DNA of 64,000 nt from Candidatus Thorarchaeota archaeon (GTDB lineage Archaea; Asgardarchaeota; Lokiarchaeia; Sigyniarchaeales; SOKP01), in assembly GCA_048883045.1 (NCBI GenBank), contig JBHLRA010000001.1, positions 19,841 to 83,840 of the forward strand. Direction: 5' to 3'. Below are positions 11,720 through 50,441 of this stretch, one piece after another (position 1 is the first letter of the stretch; each line of letters begins with the position of its first letter). The position numbers and the translations under genes are program-made. The notes under the pieces were generated by a model, which saw only the letters and a list, made by a program, of their open reading frames with translations, searched no databases and was not told the origin of the DNA.

Positions 11720-12784
11720 TTAAAGTTCTTTGAAATTGATATCATATTTCTCAGATAATTGATTAAGGGTCAACACTCTTCCAGTTTTAATATCGCTAAA
11801 ATTTTCAAAATCCAGTTCTCCTTTCTTATAGGCTGCATATCGGTTAGGCCGCAAAACTTCTTTTTTAAACAGCTCATTTTGACGTTCAAACCAATCTCTA
11901 TATTTTTCAGATGCCTCAGTTTTTCCGTATCTAGTTTCATATTTTACTTTGCCAGTCCTAGTCACTCTTTTACTAATTATTTCTTTATAAGGCCTTTCTA
12001 TTCCTTCTAGATCATATTTAGTCAGCGCCATAAGAAGACATCGGCAAAGCCAGTGGGATGGCGGTGTTATTCCAAAAGCCACAATATCTTTATGCACTTG
12101 ACCATCTAGATGCCCACAAAGCAAACAAGTTCGATGATCTAGCGTCGCTATCCATCTATAACCTATAATAAAATCCTCATAACTTTTATACACTTCTTGA
12201 AGAGATTTATTGCTTACATCCATTATTGAAGTTCTAGCGATGCGAGTTGATTCAATGATAGAAAGATTGGTGGCTGTTTTTATATTCTTGGCCATAGTTT
12301 GCATGCTGTGGCCTTGAATAAGGCCATTCAATAGTGCTCTTTTAGAATTCTTAAAATGATTTCTAAAACTTTTATTGAATAGATCAGATAAAAGAAAATC
12401 TCCTATTTTAGGTTTAAGCATTCTTTTAAGAGCTTTGGCTGGTAGTCCTAAATTAGGAACCGATCTGGATATTAAATCTAGGCCCTCTTGTTTCAGAAGA
12501 GCATTGGCAACATTGTAATATTCTAGTTTAGCTACATCACCCAAAGAATCTAATATTTTTCCATCTATCTCTTCGTGAACTTGTTTTAATATATCAATAG
12601 TTTGGGCTAGAACATATTTATAATGGCTCCGGCTTATCTCATTTATCCAAGGTTTGGCCTCTAACTTTTTAAGGATTTCAATTTGTGATCTTCTGAGGCT
12701 GTTGATGATTTCTTGGTCTAAACTATTTCCAAATTCTTCCAGAAAATGCCGATTTTTAAGAATAAAATCCATTAAAGAAGACAT
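11720..12784 (-). CDS. head morphogenesis protein, SPP1 gp7 / Mu F family
   Basis: WIATLDHRTCLLCGHLDGQV...PPSHWLCRC is the Phage_Mu_F signature; located downstream of the portal. Confidence 0.85.
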   Translation of the reverse strand: MSSLMDFILKNRHFLEEFGNSLDQEIINSLRRSQIEILKKLEAKPWINEISRSHYKYVLAQTIDILKQVHEEIDGKILDSLGDVAKLEYYNVANALLKQEGLDLISRSVPNLGLPAKALKRMLKPKIGDFLLSDLFNKSFRNHFKNSKRALLNGLIQGHSMQTMAKNIKTATNLSIIESTRIARTSIMDVSNKSLQEVYKSYEDFIIGYRWIATLDHRTCLLCGHLDGQVHKDIVAFGITPPSHWLCRCLLMALTKYDLEGIERPYKEIISKRVTRTGKVKYETRYGKTEASEKYRDWFERQNELFKKEVLRPNRYAAYKKGELDFENFSDIKTGRVLTLNQLSEKYDINFKEL

Positions 12785-13578
12785 ATATTATCTGTTCTCC
12801 ATTGCATTATACGTTTTAAAGCTATTCGATAATATTCCTTGACTACTTCTATCCCAATATATTTTCTATTAGCCTTTAAAGCCATTGCACAAGTCGTACC
12901 AGATCCACACATAGGATCTAAAATTATATCTTTAGGATTAGACCAAGAAATAATGTGATCATATGCTAATTGTTCAGGAAATGGAGCTGGATGACATTTG
13001 CCTTTTTGTTTCTGTGGTGATTGCTCCCATATATTAAATCTTTGAGATAATTCATTTATAATCATTTTTTTATTTACAGGTTTTATACTTCCATCTGCAT
13101 TTCGTATAGTGCCAGAAACAGTTTTACCTCCATGTTTTGTTTTTCTATCTTTTATTGGATTGAATATTTTTATATTTCCTTTGGATAAAATAAACATATA
13201 ATCGAACACAGGACAATATCTTTTTTTTAATGCACCAACAGCTGAAAATCCGCCTTTATTCCATATCATAGTATCATGTAAATTGAAACCTATTTCTTTA
13301 AAATATAATGCTTGTTTAAAACTTGTTCCTGTTTTAGAACCCTTAATGATTGCGTCTCCAACAATCCAAACTACAACCCCTCCAATTTTAGTAATACGAA
13401 ATAATTCTTGCGCTATTGGCTCAAATCTAAACTTATCTAAATTATTTTTATAAGTTCTTAAATTATCATAAGGTGGAGATGTGACAGTTAAATCAATACT
13501 ATTATCTGGAATATATTTCATCATATCCAAACAATCGCCTAATATTATTCTGTTTATAAAATCTTCTGGATAGTCCAT
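12772..13578 (-). CDS. DNA methyltransferase (beta-class N4-C or N6-A)
   Basis: LTVTSPPYDNLRTY (motif IV, SPPY) is N-terminal to ILDPMCGSGTTCAMA (motif I). Confidence 0.85.
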   Translation of the reverse strand: MDYPEDFINRIILGDCLDMMKYIPDNSIDLTVTSPPYDNLRTYKNNLDKFRFEPIAQELFRITKIGGVVVWIVGDAIIKGSKTGTSFKQALYFKEIGFNLHDTMIWNKGGFSAVGALKKRYCPVFDYMFILSKGNIKIFNPIKDRKTKHGGKTVSGTIRNADGSIKPVNKKMIINELSQRFNIWEQSPQKQKGKCHPAPFPEQLAYDHIISWSNPKDIILDPMCGSGTTCAMALKANRKYIGIEVVKEYYRIALKRIMQWRTDNICLL

Positions 13579-13611: not shown

Positions 13612-15324
13612 TTATTCTTCTTCCTCAACAAATTCTTCTTCCTTTTTATTTTTCTCCTTTTTTATCAAAGCTCTTACCTCTGCTTCTTTTTGAGCATTAA
13701 GCTCTATATCTTTGGCCTCTTCTTCGGCAATTTTTGCTTCCTCTTCCTCTTTATTGAAATTACGTGGCAATATTTCTCCTCTGCTCAAAATTTCCCATAA
13801 AGTGTCTCGGCTTAAATCCTTAGTCATTCTCATATCCAACAGAGCTTTGATAAGGTCAGATTCTATTTCTTTGATATCAAAATCAAGATTATAGCTGACT
13901 CTAATATCTTCATCTTTTCTATAGTCCAATTTCTCCCAAAGTGCAGCAAATTCCCAGCATTGCTGCTCAGAATTTGAAAAATTAATAGCTCTAGTTTGGA
14001 TATCAGATAAGGAATCTAATCTATCCAGCTTTTTAGCTTCAGCAGTTTGTCTGGCGCTGGTGCTAGGCCTTACTTGTTTCATGGCTAGATCGAATATTTC
14101 AGATATAATCATCTTTTCAGATTCCCTTAAAGCCTCTATAGAACTGCCAGTAAACTCCATCCATTTACCATCAGCTTTATCATTCTCTGTGATAATAGCC
14201 ATTTCTTCAGAAATAATAAGCTTTTCTTTATCTGTAAAACCTTTTAAAAATAGAAAAGGAAAAGCCGACATAACTTCTGCATGTTGGCGATCAGAATGTT
14301 TGTTATAAAATTCCAAAGCTAATTCAACTATATCAAAGATTGCTGATTTACCTACACCCCAATCTATTTCTTCACTATAGAATGGGACTAATGGGATTGT
14401 GTTTATAGATACAATCTTTTCTCCTAACTTTATTATTTCTTTTTTGTTACCAGGCAATTCTTTATAAGTATATATGGCTTGTTTATGGGGCCAAATAACT
14501 CGATATTGGACTTGATATTTAACTTCTAGAAAGGGGATATTTTCTATGATTTTCTTTTCCCTTATAATTACATAACTGAGTTCTTTATTCCCATCAATCT
14601 TTTCTCTCCAACCCCAATCCAATATATTTCTGGGATCTATTGGACAAAAATAAGGCCTTAGATTGAGGGCTTGTTCATCGGCTTGAGTTACTTTGGCCAA
14701 TTCTTTTCTTGCTTCATCTGAATCTTTGGCATTTTTTACAAAAGGATTTTCAGGATATTCAGTCAAAACATAATATATCCCTAATACTTGAGCCATTTTG
14801 GTTATAAAACTAAAAAATTTATTTGCGGATTTTCCCATCCTATCTACATTGCCTTTATATTCTTCCAGCAAAGGAGGCAGAATTCTTTCTGGTTCTTTTC
14901 TCCAAATATGTGATTGGAAAGTAGTGATGACTTGGGCAGGTTTGTTATAATATACTGCTTCCTTTTTTCTTTGATCATATTTTTTTTGAGGTTCATTGGC
15001 CTTTTTTATAAGATATACATCATCATCAGCATTTTGAACATTCCCTCCCCCTATAAAACAATCATAAAGCCTATCCCAATGAGGGTCAAGGATGTCATAA
15101 TTTGCATGCTGTTTGTCTAAATCTATTTCATCCATTTTATTATCAGGGGCAGTTGGACTTTGCTGATGAGATATTCTTTGCCTCAACACTTTTTCCTCAT
15201 AAGAAACTGTTACTTCATTTTTAATATTTGTTTCTGGATTTATGATTGTCTTTTGGCCTTTCTTAGCTCTTGGAGTATATGTTTTTTTCGTCAATTTAAT
15301 TTCCTCCTTATAGAAAATTATCAA
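13612..15324 (-). CDS. portal protein
   Basis: 570 aa between TerL and the MuF-like gene; acidic C-terminus. The likely true start is TTG 15294, preceded by AAGGAGG (the ATG at 15324 has no SD). Confidence 0.7.
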   Translation of the reverse strand: MIIFYKEEIKLTKKTYTPRAKKGQKTIINPETNIKNEVTVSYEEKVLRQRISHQQSPTAPDNKMDEIDLDKQHANYDILDPHWDRLYDCFIGGGNVQNADDDVYLIKKANEPQKKYDQRKKEAVYYNKPAQVITTFQSHIWRKEPERILPPLLEEYKGNVDRMGKSANKFFSFITKMAQVLGIYYVLTEYPENPFVKNAKDSDEARKELAKVTQADEQALNLRPYFCPIDPRNILDWGWREKIDGNKELSYVIIREKKIIENIPFLEVKYQVQYRVIWPHKQAIYTYKELPGNKKEIIKLGEKIVSINTIPLVPFYSEEIDWGVGKSAIFDIVELALEFYNKHSDRQHAEVMSAFPFLFLKGFTDKEKLIISEEMAIITENDKADGKWMEFTGSSIEALRESEKMIISEIFDLAMKQVRPSTSARQTAEAKKLDRLDSLSDIQTRAINFSNSEQQCWEFAALWEKLDYRKDEDIRVSYNLDFDIKEIESDLIKALLDMRMTKDLSRDTLWEILSRGEILPRNFNKEEEEAKIAEEEAKDIELNAQKEAEVRALIKKEKNKKEEEFVEEEE

Positions 15325-15331
15325 ATTTTAT

Positions 15332-17740
15332 CTAATATATCAAAATATCAGAAGTATCTATAACATCAGCGCTCTTTCTTAATTTCCTGAACATGCAAGC
15401 ATAGCGTACTTCGTCGCAATTCGAAACAATTATATTTCCTTGAACTGCGAATAGATGGCTCCCTTTTGTAGTTAAACAATAAACATCTGACTTTCCTATA
15501 CAATCAATTGATTTTATTTTTTTTCCTATTTTCTCCGCTGAGTTTTGCTCCGCAATCTCTTGAACAAGTTTTAGTCTTTCCATATTTGATTGTTTCGAAT
15601 TCTTTGCCACATATTGAGCATATTCTTGTTTCATGATCAAGTTTATTACTTCTTCTATATTTTGATTTGCAAACATTGGAGCAAAATTTTTGGAATGGAA
15701 ACCCTTCAAATTCATTCTTACATTGTAAACAATTTTTAATTTTTCTTGCAAGTATTTTATCTTTGCAATTTGATTGATATTGGCGTTTATGCCATTCTTT
15801 GCCTTCATCGCTCTTATGCCATTCTGCTGCCTTAATCCTAGCTTTGCTGCTTGCATTGAAAAAAGCTGAATTATCTTCTCTAAGATTAATATGTAATTTA
15901 GAATGTTGGCTTTGTGACATTGCTTCCAAATTTTCGATATTATTATTTGATCTATCAAAATCTTTGTGGTGGATGTGAAATCCATTTGGTATATTCCCAT
16001 TATGAAATTTCCAAACTGTTCTATGTAAAATATTCCCATTTTTTTTTCTAAAATATCTTCCTTGTAAGTAATATCTAATTCCATTAAATTCTTGTATTGT
16101 TTCACTAATGATAATGGTTTGCATTCATCCTCTCCTTTTAAAGAATAACAATAATCTCCTATTTTTAAATATTTAGCTTGTATTAGATTATAATTTATAT
16201 CTAAAAATTTATGATCTAATGTAGATTCAACTTTTGTTCCATCCTCAAACGATATGCGTATTAAATCTTGATTTCTTCTAGTCATTCTGCAATTATAATA
16301 ATCTGTATAAAAATTTCCAACTGTTATTATTTTCCCTTCAGTTCCGACTAAATTTTTTATGGGCTTAAATCCCTCTAAAGTTTTAACCAATGTGTTAGGG
16401 GATAAACATATATGATCTTCCTGATGAGGGGCTATATCTTCTAAATTTTTAGCATCTCTTTGCAGATAGGGTATAGTCCTTTTAAAATCATAACACCATT
16501 CCATTACCAGCAATCCTGGCCCAAATTCTTTATTTCCTATCAATCTATTACGGACTTGAGCCCATCCTGGAACTCTGCTTTTATCAGATTCAACAAACAA
16601 ATCTCCACCCATTTGCTTATGGATACTTTCTCCTCCTCTTTCCTCAAATATCTGATTATCTGCTGGTCCCTTTCTTATATTAAGACTGCCCCATTGTTTT
16701 TCTCTTTCTCTTATTTCTTTTCCTATCTGTTCATTAGACATGTAAAGACCGGATATTTTCCCGTTATCTCTTTTACATCCATACCATTCTGCAAATCTTA
16801 TCAAGGTTCCCCTTGGGTAGTATAAGCCATTTGGAGCTACATTCCCATCGCTTTCACACCACCAGCCAACTGAAAAAGGACTTGCACTGCCCCAATCAAA
16901 ACTTCTAAAACAAAACCAATCTGAAGGAGGCACAAAACATTGAGAGATTGGGATAACATTTTTTATTTCATTCCAAGCATCAGCAAAAAACGAACCAATC
17001 TTTACATCCCAAGAACCAAATATCCAAGATTTCTTAAGTTCTTCATCATTTAAACCAAACAAAGTCTTACGATAAGCTTTACCTTGATTATCCATAAATG
17101 GTATATTTTCCAACATATTACCAAAGATTGCTATTCTCTTTTCTCCCTGATTATTCTCAATAGGAACTCCCCAGCGCCCAACTGGATCAACAAAATATCC
17201 TTTGACCTCTGCTCTTCCTACACCCCAAGTATTGGCAGTTGATCTTATTCTGGGAAAGACTGATATTGGAGAAGATGCAAAGTTACAGCTCTTCATGAGC
17301 TCATAAGCCTCTAGATTAGGCCATTCACAAAGCTCATCCCAACCTATCCAGGGGAGAGCATGGCCATGAAAATTTCCATAATCTTTTTCATTATCCATAT
17401 AGGCAAATTTTAAAGTTTCTCCGTCTGGAAAATACCAAGTGCCTTCACTTTTGTTATATTCAGCTTTAAGAAATATTTTTTTATATAGCGTTTGGCTTTC
17501 AAATACTAAATCTCGGAGTTGGGGAAAAGTTCGCCTAAATAAAACACCTCTCCAAATAGGTCCATAACCTTTTCCTACATCTTGTAAAAAATCAACAAGT
17601 AAACTAGCACTTTTGCCAGCCTTTCTTGTTCCGAAATATAATGCCTCTTTAAATGGACAAGATAAAAAAAGAGATTGGGAGCCTGGATTAGGGGTCCACG
17701 CTAATGTATTTTTTTTATTATTTTGTTTTAAGATGTCCAT
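15332..17740 (-). CDS. terL: terminase large subunit precursor containing an intein
   Basis: Walker A FGTRKAGKSAS, Walker B IGWDEL. Nuclease motif EDHI|...|CDEVRYACM is split by a 330-codon insert. Confidence 0.9.
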   Translation of the reverse strand: MDILKQNNKKNTLAWTPNPGSQSLFLSCPFKEALYFGTRKAGKSASLLVDFLQDVGKGYGPIWRGVLFRRTFPQLRDLVFESQTLYKKIFLKAEYNKSEGTWYFPDGETLKFAYMDNEKDYGNFHGHALPWIGWDELCEWPNLEAYELMKSCNFASSPISVFPRIRSTANTWGVGRAEVKGYFVDPVGRWGVPIENNQGEKRIAIFGNMLENIPFMDNQGKAYRKTLFGLNDEELKKSWIFGSWDVKIGSFFADAWNEIKNVIPISQCFVPPSDWFCFRSFDWGSASPFSVGWWCESDGNVAPNGLYYPRGTLIRFAEWYGCKRDNGKISGLYMSNEQIGKEIREREKQWGSLNIRKGPADNQIFEERGGESIHKQMGGDLFVESDKSRVPGWAQVRNRLIGNKEFGPGLLVMEWCYDFKRTIPYLQRDAKNLEDIAPHQEDHICLSPNTLVKTLEGFKPIKNLVGTEGKIITVGNFYTDYYNCRMTRRNQDLIRISFEDGTKVESTLDHKFLDINYNLIQAKYLKIGDYCYSLKGEDECKPLSLVKQYKNLMELDITYKEDILEKKMGIFYIEQFGNFIMGIYQMDFTSTTKILIDQIIISKIWKQCHKANILNYILILEKIIQLFSMQAAKLGLRQQNGIRAMKAKNGINANINQIAKIKYLQEKLKIVYNVRMNLKGFHSKNFAPMFANQNIEEVINLIMKQEYAQYVAKNSKQSNMERLKLVQEIAEQNSAEKIGKKIKSIDCIGKSDVYCLTTKGSHLFAVQGNIIVSNCDEVRYACMFRKLRKSADVIDTSDILIY
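15419..16408 (-). mobile_element. intein in the TerL nuclease motif (codons 445-774)
   Basis: Block A CLSPNTLVKTLEG (Cys1 at 16406-16408), block B TLDHKFL, blocks F/G VYCLTTKGSHLFAVQGNIIVSN, +1 Cys at 15416-15418. Confidence 0.8.
15504..16124 (-). CDS. HNH homing endonuclease nested in the intein in a different reading frame
   Basis: 206 aa; HIHHKDFDRSNNNIENLEAMSQSQHSKLH; zinc ribbons CLQCKNEF..FCSNVC and CSICGKEF..CSRDC. Own SD AAAGGAGAGG 4 nt before the ATG. Frame offset 2 relative to TerL. Confidence 0.8.
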   Translation of the reverse strand: MQTIIISETIQEFNGIRYYLQGRYFRKKNGNILHRTVWKFHNGNIPNGFHIHHKDFDRSNNNIENLEAMSQSQHSKLHINLREDNSAFFNASSKARIKAAEWHKSDEGKEWHKRQYQSNCKDKILARKIKNCLQCKNEFEGFPFQKFCSNVCKSKYRRSNKLDHETRICSICGKEFETIKYGKTKTCSRDCGAKLSGENRKKNKIN

Positions 17741-47042: not shown

Positions 47043-50000
47043 ATGCCTACTCCTCTTGTATTAAAAATCGAAGTTGACGACCGGGGAAGTGTAAAAGTTG
47101 ATAAAGTCGTTGGCTCTTTTGATAGATTAAAAGATGCCACCAAAAAGGCCGATGGAAAGGTTAAGGACTTTTCACACACAATGGGTACAGTTAGGGGAGT
47201 TTTAGGCGGAGTAACAAAGGCTGTTTTCTCTTTAAAAGGCGCTCTAGCTGCTTTAGGATTAGGCTATCTAGCCAAAAGTGCAATTGGGGTAGCTGCTAGA
47301 TTTGAACAAGTTCAGGTTGCTTTAGATACTATAACTAAAGGTAAGGGTGTTGAGACATTTAAGGCATTAAATCTTTGGGCTTTAAGGATGCCGGTTAATA
47401 CTGAAAGAGCTATCGAAGCCTTTCAAATGATGATTGCTATGGGTCTGAAACCTTCTATTAAAGATATGACCACTTTAGTTGATACTATGGCTGCATTAGG
47501 TGGAAGTGAAGACATCATGACTAGCATCGCTTTGGCTTTGGGCAAGATACAGGCTAAAGGCGGAGCTACTGCTAGGGAATTATTGATGCTTACTAGGCGA
47601 GGTATTCCTGCTGTTCAAATATTAAGAGAGGAACTTAAGGATACTTCTATAGGCTTTGAAAATATAGCTACGTCCTCTTATAATGCAAATCAGATTATTA
47701 CTGCTTTATTGACTGGATTGGAGAAAAGATATGGCGGATTATCTGAAAGAATACACCATATTTGGGTAGGATTAATGGAAACCATTGTAAGTGAATACAA
47801 AGAGTTTGTGAGGGTTGTCTTTGCCTCTGGTGTAATGGAATATCTTGAATCAAAAATACAAAAATTTATAGACCAAATAGATATTTGGAGAGCTTCTGGT
47901 CAATTAGATGTATGGGCAAAGAATGTTGCTAATGTTCTTATAGGGGCTTTTCAGAAGATAGAAAGGGCTATTGTTTGGGTAATAGACCATATAGATGATC
48001 TAAAAAAGGCCTTTAAACTCTTACTTATCCCGGTTAAAGCTTTTATAGCTTTTAAACTAGCTGCTATTTTGACAGAAATAGGTGATGGGGCTGTATTTGC
48101 TGTCAAAAAAATAATTCATTTAAGGTCTTCAATGGAATTATTAAATACAAAAATGTCTAAATTATCGCCTGGCACTAAAGGTGGGTTAATAGGTCTTGCT
48201 TTGTTTGGAGGTTGGGAGATAGGAAAATGGTTGAATCAATTCAATATAGTTAAAAAATGGGGTATAGCACTTGCTGCTGGCTTACATAAGACTTTTCTAT
48301 GGTTAGAAAAATCATTAAAAGGAACTTGGGATTTAATAAAATTTGCATTTGATAAAATGGTTCAAGGAATAGAAAAAACTTTAAATGCTTTGCCAGAATC
48401 TATTCAATTTGTTCTTAATTCTATTATAGATGGAATAAATAAATTATTAGATTCTATGAGTAAATTACCAATAATAGGTAAAAAAATACAAGGGGCAAAA
48501 CTTGGTAAAATAGAATTCGGAACAATAAAATTAAAAGAAGATTATATGACCTTTGAAGAAGTTTTACAAAATTTACTTAAATATGAATCTGATTATGAAA
48601 AGGCCCTTAAGGATGCTAAAAAAATATGGCAAGAAATGTTTGATGAAGTAGGCAAAGTTGAAGAATCTACTAATGAAATTGTTCAGACAGCAAAAGAAGT
48701 TCCTAAGGTTGAGTTGCCTGATTTAGGCGGAGAAGCAGAAATAGAAATAACAGAAATGATGGCTGCTTGGAATAAATTATGGGAAGATATGAACGAAGGA
48801 TTTGTACAAGGATTTGCTGATATGTTGTCAGGCAATATTAGAAAATTTAGTGATTTTATGAAGAGCCTTAAAAATATTTTCATCCAAGGAATTGCTAAAA
48901 TGGCTAGTGAACAATTTATTAGACCTATTATAGAACCAATAACTGGGCTTTTAAAAAATACATTTTCAGGAATATTTGGTGGCATATTTGGAGGAAAAGA
49001 TGGTAAATCTATTTTCGGAGAAGGCTTGTTGGGTGGAATGACTGGCGCTGTTGCTTTAGGTGGAATAGGCACTATGATTTCTAATTTTGTAGATAGATTC
49101 ACCAGAGAGAAACCAAGTATAGAGCTTAAATGGTCTATAGATAAAGATGAATTCCAGCAAATAGCCGATTCTTGGAAAGGAGGAGCAGAGAAAAATGAAG
49201 CTTTGATAGGGACTGTAAATGATACTATAGGTAATTTAGTAAAAATGTATTCTAAGATGTCAAATTTCGTTAATATAGATATGGCTAAGATGGAAATAAC
49301 TATGAATAATATTTATAAAATATCTAGAGACATGGCATCAATCCCTTATCAATTTGCTGCAGCCAATATAGATATTTTAGAAAAAATGTTTGGTGAAGCA
49401 GTTGCGACTGATTTGATGAGTCAAATAGAAGAAGTTCAAGCAGAAATAAAAAGAGTGCAAGAAGAAGGATTCAGACTCGCAGGCATCGCTGGTGCATTTG
49501 GCGGTAAAAATATTGCAATCGCTACTATATTTGGAACTAGAAAAAATGTTGAAGAATTAGAAGATGAATTGAAAATTTTATATGATGCTTTAAGTGGGAA
49601 TATAGAGGAATTATTTAATAAATTTGAATCATTTTTTGAAGAATTTTCTGATATAATAGGGAAATCTTTTTTAGAATCTTTAGAAACTAAAGAATTTCAA
49701 TCTTTTAAAGATGGATTAAGAAAAGGTATTTATGATTCTTTTAGGACAGCTTTATTAATTGAATTCCAAAAACAAACTTTAGAACAAATTATGCCTAATT
49801 TATGGCAATCTTTTGGTATTACTGGCTGGGGAGATGTGGTTAATATGGCTATGCAAGGCGATTCTTCACAGGCCTTAGCTATGATAGAAACGATGACTGC
49901 CGCTATTGATCAAATAGAACCCGCCTTCAATATTTTAACAGATGTAATAATCCAAATGGAAAATGCATTGAATCTGAATACTGAAGCGATTGTTTCGAAC

Positions 50001-50441
50001 AATAATTTATTGGAAAAACAGCAAATGGTTGAAGATTTTATTTCTGAATTAACGACCGGAGGCTTAGCTCCTGTTCAAAGCTATGAGGCTATTATGGGGC
50101 GTTATCAAGATCTTTTGGCCAGCGATAATTTACAAGAGCTTTTTAATTTTGTAACTGGAACTGCTTTGCCTTTCCTCCAAACTTATGGCGGTAATTATCA
50201 AGAGGCTTTTTCTGGAGTAATTGAGGATTTAAGGAATTTAAGCGGCTTGTATGGAGCCAATATAAGTCCTTCAGCTATTGGGGAAGCTGTGGCTGGTGCT
50301 ATAATGCCAGCTTTACAAGGTGGGTCTCAGACTATTCATGTTACAGTTGAAGTAGATGGGCGGGAAATAGGAGAAATTTTATTGGATCAGCTTCAAACTA
50401 ATCCTCAGCTAGTCCAGGAAATTAAAGAAATAGCGCAATAA
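47043..50441 (+). CDS. tape measure protein
   Basis: 1132 aa, helical, Gly-rich hydrophobic segments (FSGIFGGIFGG), position. Confidence 0.9.
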   Translation: MPTPLVLKIEVDDRGSVKVDKVVGSFDRLKDATKKADGKVKDFSHTMGTVRGVLGGVTKAVFSLKGALAALGLGYLAKSAIGVAARFEQVQVALDTITKGKGVETFKALNLWALRMPVNTERAIEAFQMMIAMGLKPSIKDMTTLVDTMAALGGSEDIMTSIALALGKIQAKGGATARELLMLTRRGIPAVQILREELKDTSIGFENIATSSYNANQIITALLTGLEKRYGGLSERIHHIWVGLMETIVSEYKEFVRVVFASGVMEYLESKIQKFIDQIDIWRASGQLDVWAKNVANVLIGAFQKIERAIVWVIDHIDDLKKAFKLLLIPVKAFIAFKLAAILTEIGDGAVFAVKKIIHLRSSMELLNTKMSKLSPGTKGGLIGLALFGGWEIGKWLNQFNIVKKWGIALAAGLHKTFLWLEKSLKGTWDLIKFAFDKMVQGIEKTLNALPESIQFVLNSIIDGINKLLDSMSKLPIIGKKIQGAKLGKIEFGTIKLKEDYMTFEEVLQNLLKYESDYEKALKDAKKIWQEMFDEVGKVEESTNEIVQTAKEVPKVELPDLGGEAEIEITEMMAAWNKLWEDMNEGFVQGFADMLSGNIRKFSDFMKSLKNIFIQGIAKMASEQFIRPIIEPITGLLKNTFSGIFGGIFGGKDGKSIFGEGLLGGMTGAVALGGIGTMISNFVDRFTREKPSIELKWSIDKDEFQQIADSWKGGAEKNEALIGTVNDTIGNLVKMYSKMSNFVNIDMAKMEITMNNIYKISRDMASIPYQFAAANIDILEKMFGEAVATDLMSQIEEVQAEIKRVQEEGFRLAGIAGAFGGKNIAIATIFGTRKNVEELEDELKILYDALSGNIEELFNKFESFFEEFSDIIGKSFLESLETKEFQSFKDGLRKGIYDSFRTALLIEFQKQTLEQIMPNLWQSFGITGWGDVVNMAMQGDSSQALAMIETMTAAIDQIEPAFNILTDVIIQMENALNLNTEAIVSNNNLLEKQQMVEDFISELTTGGLAPVQSYEAIMGRYQDLLASDNLQELFNFVTGTALPFLQTYGGNYQEAFSGVIEDLRNLSGLYGANISPSAIGEAVAGAIMPALQGGSQTIHVTVEVDGREIGEILLDQLQTNPQLVQEIKEIAQ

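Follow-up and report, generated by a model that had tools for sequence, protein, structure and literature searches.

The DNA analyzed here (the window) is a 64,000-nt stretch of contig JBHLRA010000001.1, binned with a Candidatus Thorarchaeota archaeon. On its minus strand it encodes a large terminase subunit (TerL) whose open reading frame (ORF) contains an intein, and the region between the splicing blocks of this intein carries a complete gene for an HNH homing endonuclease. The arrangement is very probably that of a contiguous intein placed in the nuclease motif of TerL (...EDHI|CDEVRY...), in which the slot of the endonuclease domain, between blocks B and F, is filled by an HNH gene of the free-standing type, read from the same strand in another frame. 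The TerL frame is kept open across this gene by selection acting on synonymous sites of the HNH gene.

Anatomy of the terL intein and its nested HNH gene

The coordinates and motifs of TerL, the intein and the HNH gene given in a preliminary description of this DNA were all confirmed by ORF analysis, translation and Pfam searches. The features concerned are as follows:

15332..17740 (-), TerL precursor ORF, 802 aa, with N-extein, intein and C-extein in one open frame
16409..17740 (-), TerL N-extein, aa 1-444, C-terminal end ...APHQEDHI; alignable with the intein-less TerL of PaMx11 and RcRudolph up to ...AEDHI/L
15419..16408 (-), intein, 330 aa in the TerL frame, residues 445-774
16125..16408 (-), N-terminal splicing segment of the intein, about 95 aa, blocks A and B
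16129..16137 (-), Shine-Dalgarno (SD)-like AAGGAGAGG, 4 nt 5' of the HNH ATG and within the frame coding for TerL, in the arrangement AAGGAGAGG-ATGA-ATG
15504..16124 (-), HNH homing-endonuclease gene, 206 aa; the dual-coded stretch
15419..15503 (-), C-terminal splicing segment of the intein, blocks F and G, ...SDVYCLTTKGSHLFAVQGNIIVSN
15332..15418 (-), TerL C-extein, CDEVRYACMF..., 28 aa plus stop; the nuclease motif would be restored after splicing

The 802-aa product matches the Pfam families Terminase_6N and Intein_splicing, and Walker A (GTRKAGKS) and Walker B (WIGWDE) motifs were read by eye in its translation. The intein starts with Cys1 (CLSPNTLV), contains block B (TLDH) and ends in ...IIVSN, followed by Cys+1 (CDEVRY); the three residues expected to take part in splicing (Cys1, the terminal Asn of ...VSN, and Cys+1) are all present. 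The 330-aa product of the TerL frame matched Intein_splicing on its own (41.2 bits, cut-off 35.8), and no endonuclease family was found among its Pfam matches. The product of the HNH gene, in turn, matched HNH_3 (E = 8.6e-17). These matches on separate products support the view, put forward in the preliminary description, of a mini-intein-like splicing domain with an out-of-frame HNH gene of the free-standing type.

Counted from the HNH frame, the TerL frame lies at +1, which corresponds to a 2-nt offset of the HNH frame. Over the 621-nt HNH stretch the TerL frame contains no stop codons, and the third frame contains 33. Since a TGA in the HNH frame abuts the HNH ATG on its 5' side, the HNH ORF cannot be extended upstream; block F follows the HNH TGA stop (15506..15504) after a few codons. 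The layout is therefore not that of a canonical in-frame HNH intein, as the HNH frame differs from the intein frame and is closed just before the ATG. Nor is it that of a fractured gene, with a stop after the N-terminal intein piece (IntN) and a separate start of the C-terminal piece (IntC), as the precursor is a single uninterrupted ORF of 802 codons. Since both the stop after IntN and the restart before IntC are absent, the intein is contiguous and presumably splices in cis. The host frame is uninterrupted between the splicing blocks, as in the out-of-frame-endonuclease inteins in the sense of Gosselin et al. (2025).

With residues 445-774 removed, the spliced TerL (query residues 3-459) aligned in a single segment, at 40-44% identity, with the TerL proteins of 623 cultured phages, i.e. 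as a contiguous conserved host protein. In a three-way alignment at the junction, AEDHIADEVRY (PaMx11) and AEDHLGDETRY (RcRudolph) correspond to QEDHI|CDEVRY of the window, and D446, E447, R449 and Y450 are invariant between the window TerL and the intein-less TerL. Since the spliced TerL aligns unbroken with intein-less TerL, the insert is located in the C-terminal nuclease motif and its removal restores this motif; the extein junction proposed earlier was thus borne out by PaMx11 and RcRudolph. Three other searches were negative: a blastn distant-mode search with the window terL DNA gave no match among cultured phages, a PDB sequence search with the spliced TerL gave none either, and the 330-aa product of the TerL frame found nothing at E <= 0.001 in a collection of 5.8 billion proteins.

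HNH_3 genes are common in phage group I introns, and on this ground the insert might be thought to be removed as RNA, by a group I or group II intron with an HNH ORF and with no protein splicing. The probability of this is negligible. The insert is bounded exactly by Cys1 and Asn|Cys+1 and contains intein blocks A, B, F and G, and an open host frame would be needless for an intron. A group I intron or other RNA family was also sought directly and rejected: an Rfam scan of positions 15000..17000 revealed no intron family even at E <= 1, the output being one sub-threshold unrelated match.

Nested, split and free-standing relatives

A first scan of IMG/VR with the HNH protein revealed 15 loci, each with the HNH gene out of frame within a long, open ORF for TerL, and 80 further loci came from a profile scan. 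In total, 100 viral loci (the window and L001-L099, a few duplicates included) were classified with the aid of home-made hidden Markov models (HMMs) for the intein flanks. Three states were distinguished: (i) nested, with a same-strand frame open across the entire HNH ORF (64 loci, 49 with the host frame at +1 and 15 at +2), (ii) split, with IntN and IntC around the HNH gene, the host frame closed and TerL "fractured" (24-26 loci), and (iii) free-standing, with no intein pieces (10 loci). Intein N and/or C pieces flank the HNH gene in 63 of the 64 nested loci, and the HNH ORF is intact in 62 out of 62 that are complete. No locus with IntN, HNH and IntC in one frame was found among the 100 viral loci and the genome loci surveyed. 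IntN and HNH share a frame in L031, L059 and L061, with stop codon(s) between them.

The splicing segments are conserved in these relatives. Blocks A and B could be followed across 61 of them and block F/G is also alignable; the IntN HMM matched the equivalent segment in both nested and split relatives. In the nested loci the F/G motif (..VYxLxV..HxFxANGxLVHN|C..D..RY) begins right after the HNH stop, and it stands immediately 3' of this stop in more than 60 relatives. Two loci show other overlaps: in L075 (2743..3393) an open frame overlaps the HNH gene with no intein pieces, and in L070 (2760..4115) a 451-aa ORF in the HNH frame overlaps the host ORF. L075 is apparently GC-rich (a singleton survey class of 64% GC is taken to be this locus), and the long open frames could then have arisen by chance.

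The HNH family comprises 1168 representatives (50% clustering, E <= 1e-30). The best 150 of these are almost all 160-410 aa long, most of them about 200-260 aa, and among these 150 no protein is as long as a TerL fusion would be, save one unrelated 1662-aa repeat protein. The nested layout was also identified in 11 further genome loci. In the species-genome collection it is present in the finished chromosome of Allohahella sp. A8, and among metagenome-assembled genomes (MAGs) in those of Sedimentisphaerales, Smithella, Terriglobia, Ktedonobacterales, Planctomycetales, Patescibacteria and others. The split form is carried by Firmicutes isolates (Peptococcus simiae, Leuconostoc falkenbergense, Lactobacillus sp. 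and Limosilactobacillus gastricus). Within the genome collection, split loci thus belong to Firmicutes isolates (L108, L110, L111, L117) and nested loci mostly to Gram-negative bacteria and other phyla (L103, L105, L112, L115-L119, L122, L124, L128).

Three cultured phages contain the nested form: Clostridium phage phiCDHM19, Tetrasphaera phage TJE1 and Acinetobacter phage vB_AbaM_Highwayman. In their records TerL is one long coding sequence in the host frame and the HNH gene is unannotated; no report of an intein or a hidden HNH gene in terL of phiCDHM19, phiCD119 or TJE1 was found in the library searched. The annotation is thus reversed with respect to that of the window, for which the records suggest that the nested HNH was called as a protein and the TerL precursor apparently never was. 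An exact look-up of the window HNH protein found no contig record. The layout is compatible with viable phages, and the fact that viable carriers have it in their only terL is the best indirect support for splicing.

These occurrences also bear on the possibility that two compensating indels from sequencing or assembly mask an ordinary in-frame HNH intein, one of the conditions that the preliminary description named as refuting it. The window is indeed from a metagenome-assembled contig, and the identical HNH protein at NCBI is labelled as coming from a Thorarchaeota MAG, on an 84.6-kb contig. Nevertheless, an artefact is ruled out by the presence of the nested form in cultured phages and in the finished Allohahella chromosome, to which the other nested viral and genome loci, coming from independent assemblies, can be added. 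Moreover, the HNH gene has its own ATG, with a TGA directly before it in the same frame, and its own stop; an in-frame version is lacking in the surveyed loci and in the best 150 representatives; and the codon-level avoidance of stops (see below) would be left unexplained. Practically no weight is therefore given to this explanation.

The closest relative found of the window HNH is encoded by L001, a contig-end fragment (83% aa identity), and no closer HNH relative was found in viral and metagenome contigs (L001, 88% nt identity). The closest full-length relative found, P0002 (52% aa identity), is located in a fractured terL with a split intein (L016). The order in this locus is TerL-N with IntN, a stop, the HNH gene with its own SD, and an ORF for IntC and the C-extein that begins with MKIKSI and reads ...LIVHN|CYDSWRY at the junction. 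A stop after IntN and a separate IntC start are present in L016, L027-L029 and other relatives. Among 24 split loci, 20 have their IntC ORF in the +1 frame relative to the HNH gene, usually overlapping the 3' end of the latter, and the 3' junction is the same as that of the +1 nested class. IntN and IntC lie in the same frame in 14 of the 24, compared to one third expected. This shared frame suggests that nested and split forms are interconverted. A rough neighbour-joining tree requires at least 13 changes, in one direction or the other, between the nested, split and free-standing states. The preliminary description had seen the arrangement as an intermediate between split inteins with an interposed endonuclease gene and canonical in-frame ones. 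The first half of this claim is supported by L016; a step towards the in-frame form is not, as there are no in-frame relatives in the surveyed loci.

It is possible, if rather doubtful, that the nested out-of-frame layout is a selectively preferred and long-lived state of this HNH/TerL-intein family, with active selection keeping the endonuclease off the TerL precursor. Such a reading, opposed to that of a rare accident, would draw on the nested form being the majority state, its occurrence in two frame relations, the interconversion with the split form and the fact that the in-frame form was never encountered, although a pair of indels of 1-2 nt would suffice to produce it.

The free-standing members invite another explanation, in which the HNH is a domesticated packaging co-factor of the terminase, lodged in the intein by chance, like the HNH proteins that aid TerL in HK97-like phages (an idea from Kala et al. 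2014, as cited in other papers). In Pseudomonas phage PAE1 the HNH gene stands alone between terL and the portal gene, as do the relatives beside intact TerL in L017-L019, and the entire HNH family is tied to terminase genes. Nonetheless, a packaging role is improbable as an account of the nested gene. The distribution of the HNH is sporadic (in PaMx11 and RcRudolph terL is directly followed by the portal gene, with neither HNH nor intein), the nested, split and free-standing states switch often, and the gene occupies the canonical endonuclease slot of the intein. Its domain belongs to HNH_3, and among solved structures it matched best the homing enzyme I-HmuI. In PAE1 (L185, 4523..5110) a second annotated homing endonuclease (Orf6) is located two genes downstream of the free-standing HNH, in the portal/head module.

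Selection on the two frames and expression of the HNH gene

From base composition, the preliminary description had estimated the chance of a stop-free TerL frame at 1e-7 to 1e-8, and an independent-base calculation gave 3e-9. This is the wrong null, because the amino-acid sequence of the HNH protein fixes which stops can arise: only Leu, Ile, Val and Met codons of the HNH gene are able to make stops in the +1 frame. When synonymous codons were permuted within the HNH gene, the TerL frame was open in 29 out of 300,000 trials (9.7e-5), with 5.3 stops expected and none observed; with window-wide codon usage it was open in none of 20,000 trials (7.5 stops expected). Given the HNH protein, the probability is thus about 1e-4, and the earlier figure overstated the improbability by about four orders of magnitude. 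The avoidance is visible at the level of single codons: Leu, Ile and Val codons ending in A are found in 0 of 15 cases before a codon starting with a purine, compared to 9 of 13 before one starting with a pyrimidine (Fisher p = 1e-4).

The split and free-standing relatives served as a natural control. Within the last 170 HNH codons, +1-frame stops number 4-13 in the split relatives and 1-11 in the free-standing ones, and +2-frame stops 11-39 and 20-30, respectively. The nested relatives contain none in whichever frame is the host frame. Most nested loci tested were significant individually (permutation P <= 2e-4). The permutation result and the stops in split and free-standing relatives sustain the earlier proposal that selection keeps the host frame open.

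In the HNH protein, H52, H53, D55, N60, N61, N65, H74 and H78 are invariant across 32 homologues, and all 21 invariant residues of the 32-member alignment are retained by the window protein. [quoted passage not shown] The top Foldseek match in the PDB was I-HmuI (1u3e), a weak one (E = 0.12, TM 0.23), the HNH protein being elongated and multi-domain; the C-terminal modules of the model match YacG zinc fingers.

Substitutions were counted at HNH codon positions 1/2/3 for three pairs of loci: 38/29/88 between L003 and L011 (aa identity 73% for the HNH, 44% for the TerL-frame linker), 51/38/116 between L068 and L072 (70% and 36%) and 16/8/24 between the window and L001 (83% and 77%). HNH codon position 3 is the second, always non-synonymous position of the host codons where the host frame is +1 (the first position where it is +2). 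Since substitutions cluster at HNH position 3 and HNH identity is much higher than linker identity, the HNH frame is under selection at the protein level. Judging from the alignments and the model, the HNH is a protein under purifying selection and predicted to be functional, and the linker in the TerL frame has no conserved sequence and is constrained only to remain stop-free.

Selection on TerL alone would suffice to keep the host frame open, as stops would kill TerL, and many nested relatives have no obvious SD. The HNH ORF might accordingly be regarded as a decaying relic of a former invasion, inside an intein of which only the splicing domain matters. This is very improbable, as decay would bring stops into the HNH frame or deletion down to a mini-intein, whereas every complete nested locus retains an intact HNH ORF. 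The retention of the 21 invariant residues, the excess of third-position substitutions, the gap between HNH and linker identity, and the confident AF2 model all stand against it as well.

An intein spliced from an open TerL frame, with an independently expressed HNH gene inside it, would function as follows. Ribosomes translating TerL would cross the HNH gene in the +1 frame with no halt, and this read-through would yield a 207-residue passenger linker, constrained only to be stop-free, at the site of the canonical endonuclease domain. The N- and C-terminal splicing segments would then co-fold and remove all 330 aa of the insert, joining the exteins to give active TerL. On the same mRNA, the HNH protein would be made separately, from its own SD and ATG. 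Its probable targets are terL alleles without the intein in co-infecting phages, which it would cut and repair of which would copy the intein and HNH gene as a unit (homing); the putative cleavage substrate is the intein-less junction ...CAAGAAGATCATATT|GCN GATGAAGTN... The support for homing is distributional, the three states (nested, split, free-standing) being spread across the tree.

Several observations weigh against this scheme. (i) The penultimate residue of the intein is Ser (IIVSN), and the His usual at this position of block G is absent. The penultimate His is not universal among active inteins, the VSN|C ending is common to the cultured phages phiCDHM19 and TJE1, and an SN ending is found in many relatives. 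(ii) The AF2 prediction for the 330-aa insert, made from a single sequence, is uninformative (pLDDT 35.8) and not fairly comparable with the 32-sequence HNH model. (iii) No close intein-less allele of the window TerL, which would show in this clade the presence/absence polymorphism that is the hallmark of homing, was found in viral and metagenome contigs, the best being 45% identical. (iv) Only 12 of 56 nested relatives have an SD core of 5 nt or more, compared to 16 of the 24 split and 7 of the 8 free-standing relatives, and HNH initiation may work differently in most nested relatives. (v) No significant RNA structure was detected around the HNH start, where a predicted 9-bp stem over the SD is no more stable than in shuffled sequences (z = -0.05). 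(vi) An internal promoter signal is not enriched, with 18 promoter-like sites compared to 14.3 +/- 4.6 in shuffles.

Three further observations concern the initiation of HNH synthesis. A sigma-70-like sequence, TTGGAA-17-TATAAT (10/12 matches), is located at 16320..16292 (-) inside IntN, about 170 nt 5' of the HNH start, in AT-rich DNA. In a +2 nested clade (L003-L008, L011, L012, L071, L076) a conserved TGATACGCTGCGTTACATATG precedes the HNH start, with no SD-like element. The prevalence of Firmicutes among the split loci may be linked to the stronger SD usage of the split form.

The rest of the window resembles the genome of a tailed phage. Besides the terminase, it encodes a DUF4055 portal protein (13612..15324), a Mu F-like head protein (11720..12784), a tape-measure-like protein (47043..50441) and a helicase; no tRNAs were found in the window. 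One more gene of the packaging/head module, between the portal and Mu F-like head genes, is the following:

12772..13578 (-), N6/N4 DNA methyltransferase (Pfam N6_N4_Mtase, E = 7.6e-39)

The phages whose TerL proteins are 40-44% identical to that of the window include siphoviruses of Pseudomonas, Xanthomonas and Rhodobacter, and the SD is of bacterial type. The window is more probably a mis-binned bacteriophage contig than part of an Asgard-archaeal virus.

Comparison with known systems and significance

The preliminary description regarded the arrangement as undescribed. This did not hold, since inteins with out-of-frame or antisense endonucleases have been reported (bioRxiv 10.1101/2025.01.02.630785; bioRxiv 10.64898/2026.09.14.751524; Gorbalenya 1998, as cited). 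The kind of arrangement is thus already known, having been first described in 2025-26, with the DnaX precedent of Gorbalenya 1998 (as cited).

The nearest parallel is provided by Gosselin, Arsenault & Gogarten (bioRxiv 10.1101/2025.01.02.630785), who reported 63 non-canonical actinophage inteins, with the terminase large subunit among four types of host protein. Their set includes antisense LAGLIDADG and VSR-like endonucleases and an endonuclease VII-like one "in reading frame 3 relative to the intein", and the origin proposed is invasion by free-standing endonuclease genes. The window shares with these inteins the same-strand, out-of-frame endonuclease between the splicing blocks, the open intein/extein frame and the TerL host. 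It differs in the enzyme, which is endonuclease VII there and an HNH_3 (I-HmuI-like) protein with two YacG-like zinc ribbons here, and in the carriers, which are actinophages there and environmental phages and diverse bacteria here. In addition, the present family has both +1 and +2 relations and many split and free-standing sisters. The HNH inteins of that paper are in frame, unlike the window.

The cyanobacterial DnaX intein, with its overlapping, antisense LAGLIDADG endonuclease (Gorbalenya 1998, as cited), was treated likewise by Phillips et al. (bioRxiv 10.64898/2026.09.14.751524), who noted few broadly distributed examples. There, too, the endonuclease is functional, is under purifying selection and overlaps an intein frame that stays open, and the arrangement is read as secondary invasion of a mini-intein. 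However, that endonuclease is of the LAGLIDADG type, lies on the opposite strand and has its host, dnaX, in a cellular genome.

Dassa et al. (2009, PMC2677866) described fractured genes, one of them for a terminase, in which the endonucleases are of the GIY-YIG and Vsr-like types; fracturing by HNH they only predicted. The order IntN, endonuclease gene, IntC is the same, and close HNH relatives of the window gene occupy such terL genes (L016 and about 24 others); the overlap of the endonuclease 3' end with the IntC ORF in the split relatives is as Dassa described. The difference is that the window TerL is interrupted neither after IntN nor before IntC.

ShiLan-type phage DNA methylases (Arsenault et al. 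2025, PMC11855218) likewise carry an out-of-frame HNH gene in a stop-free host ORF, and the translation of that HNH is also unexplained. They have no intein and no splicing domains, and the insert is thought to stay in the host protein, whereas the insert described here is bounded by intein blocks and its excision is expected. In canonical HNH inteins, which are of the in-frame type (Dalgaard et al. 1997, as cited), an endonuclease of the HNH superfamily occupies the same slot between blocks B and F. In the window the endonuclease lies outside the intein polypeptide, and no family member in the surveyed loci is of the in-frame type.

What is new here is the HNH_3 and zinc-ribbon family, the occurrence of both frame relations in one family, the test at the level of codons, the family's size and breadth, and the hidden, unannotated examples in cultured phages. 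Codon-level stop avoidance, with natural controls, provides a clean statistical signature of dual coding, and the HNH genes of phiCDHM19, TJE1 and Highwayman show that such genes are missed by annotators. If the nested layout is indeed a preferred state, the dosage or timing of the endonuclease could be controlled via ribosome traffic over the internal start, the disturbance of splicing or packaging by a DNA-binding domain might be avoided, and the family would be a natural system for the birth of split inteins from contiguous ones, or the reverse. The coexistence of nested, split and free-standing forms in one family bears on how inteins acquire endonucleases and on the origin of split inteins, and the family is a possible source of cis- and trans-splicing intein pairs that tolerate an arbitrary insert of about 200 residues.

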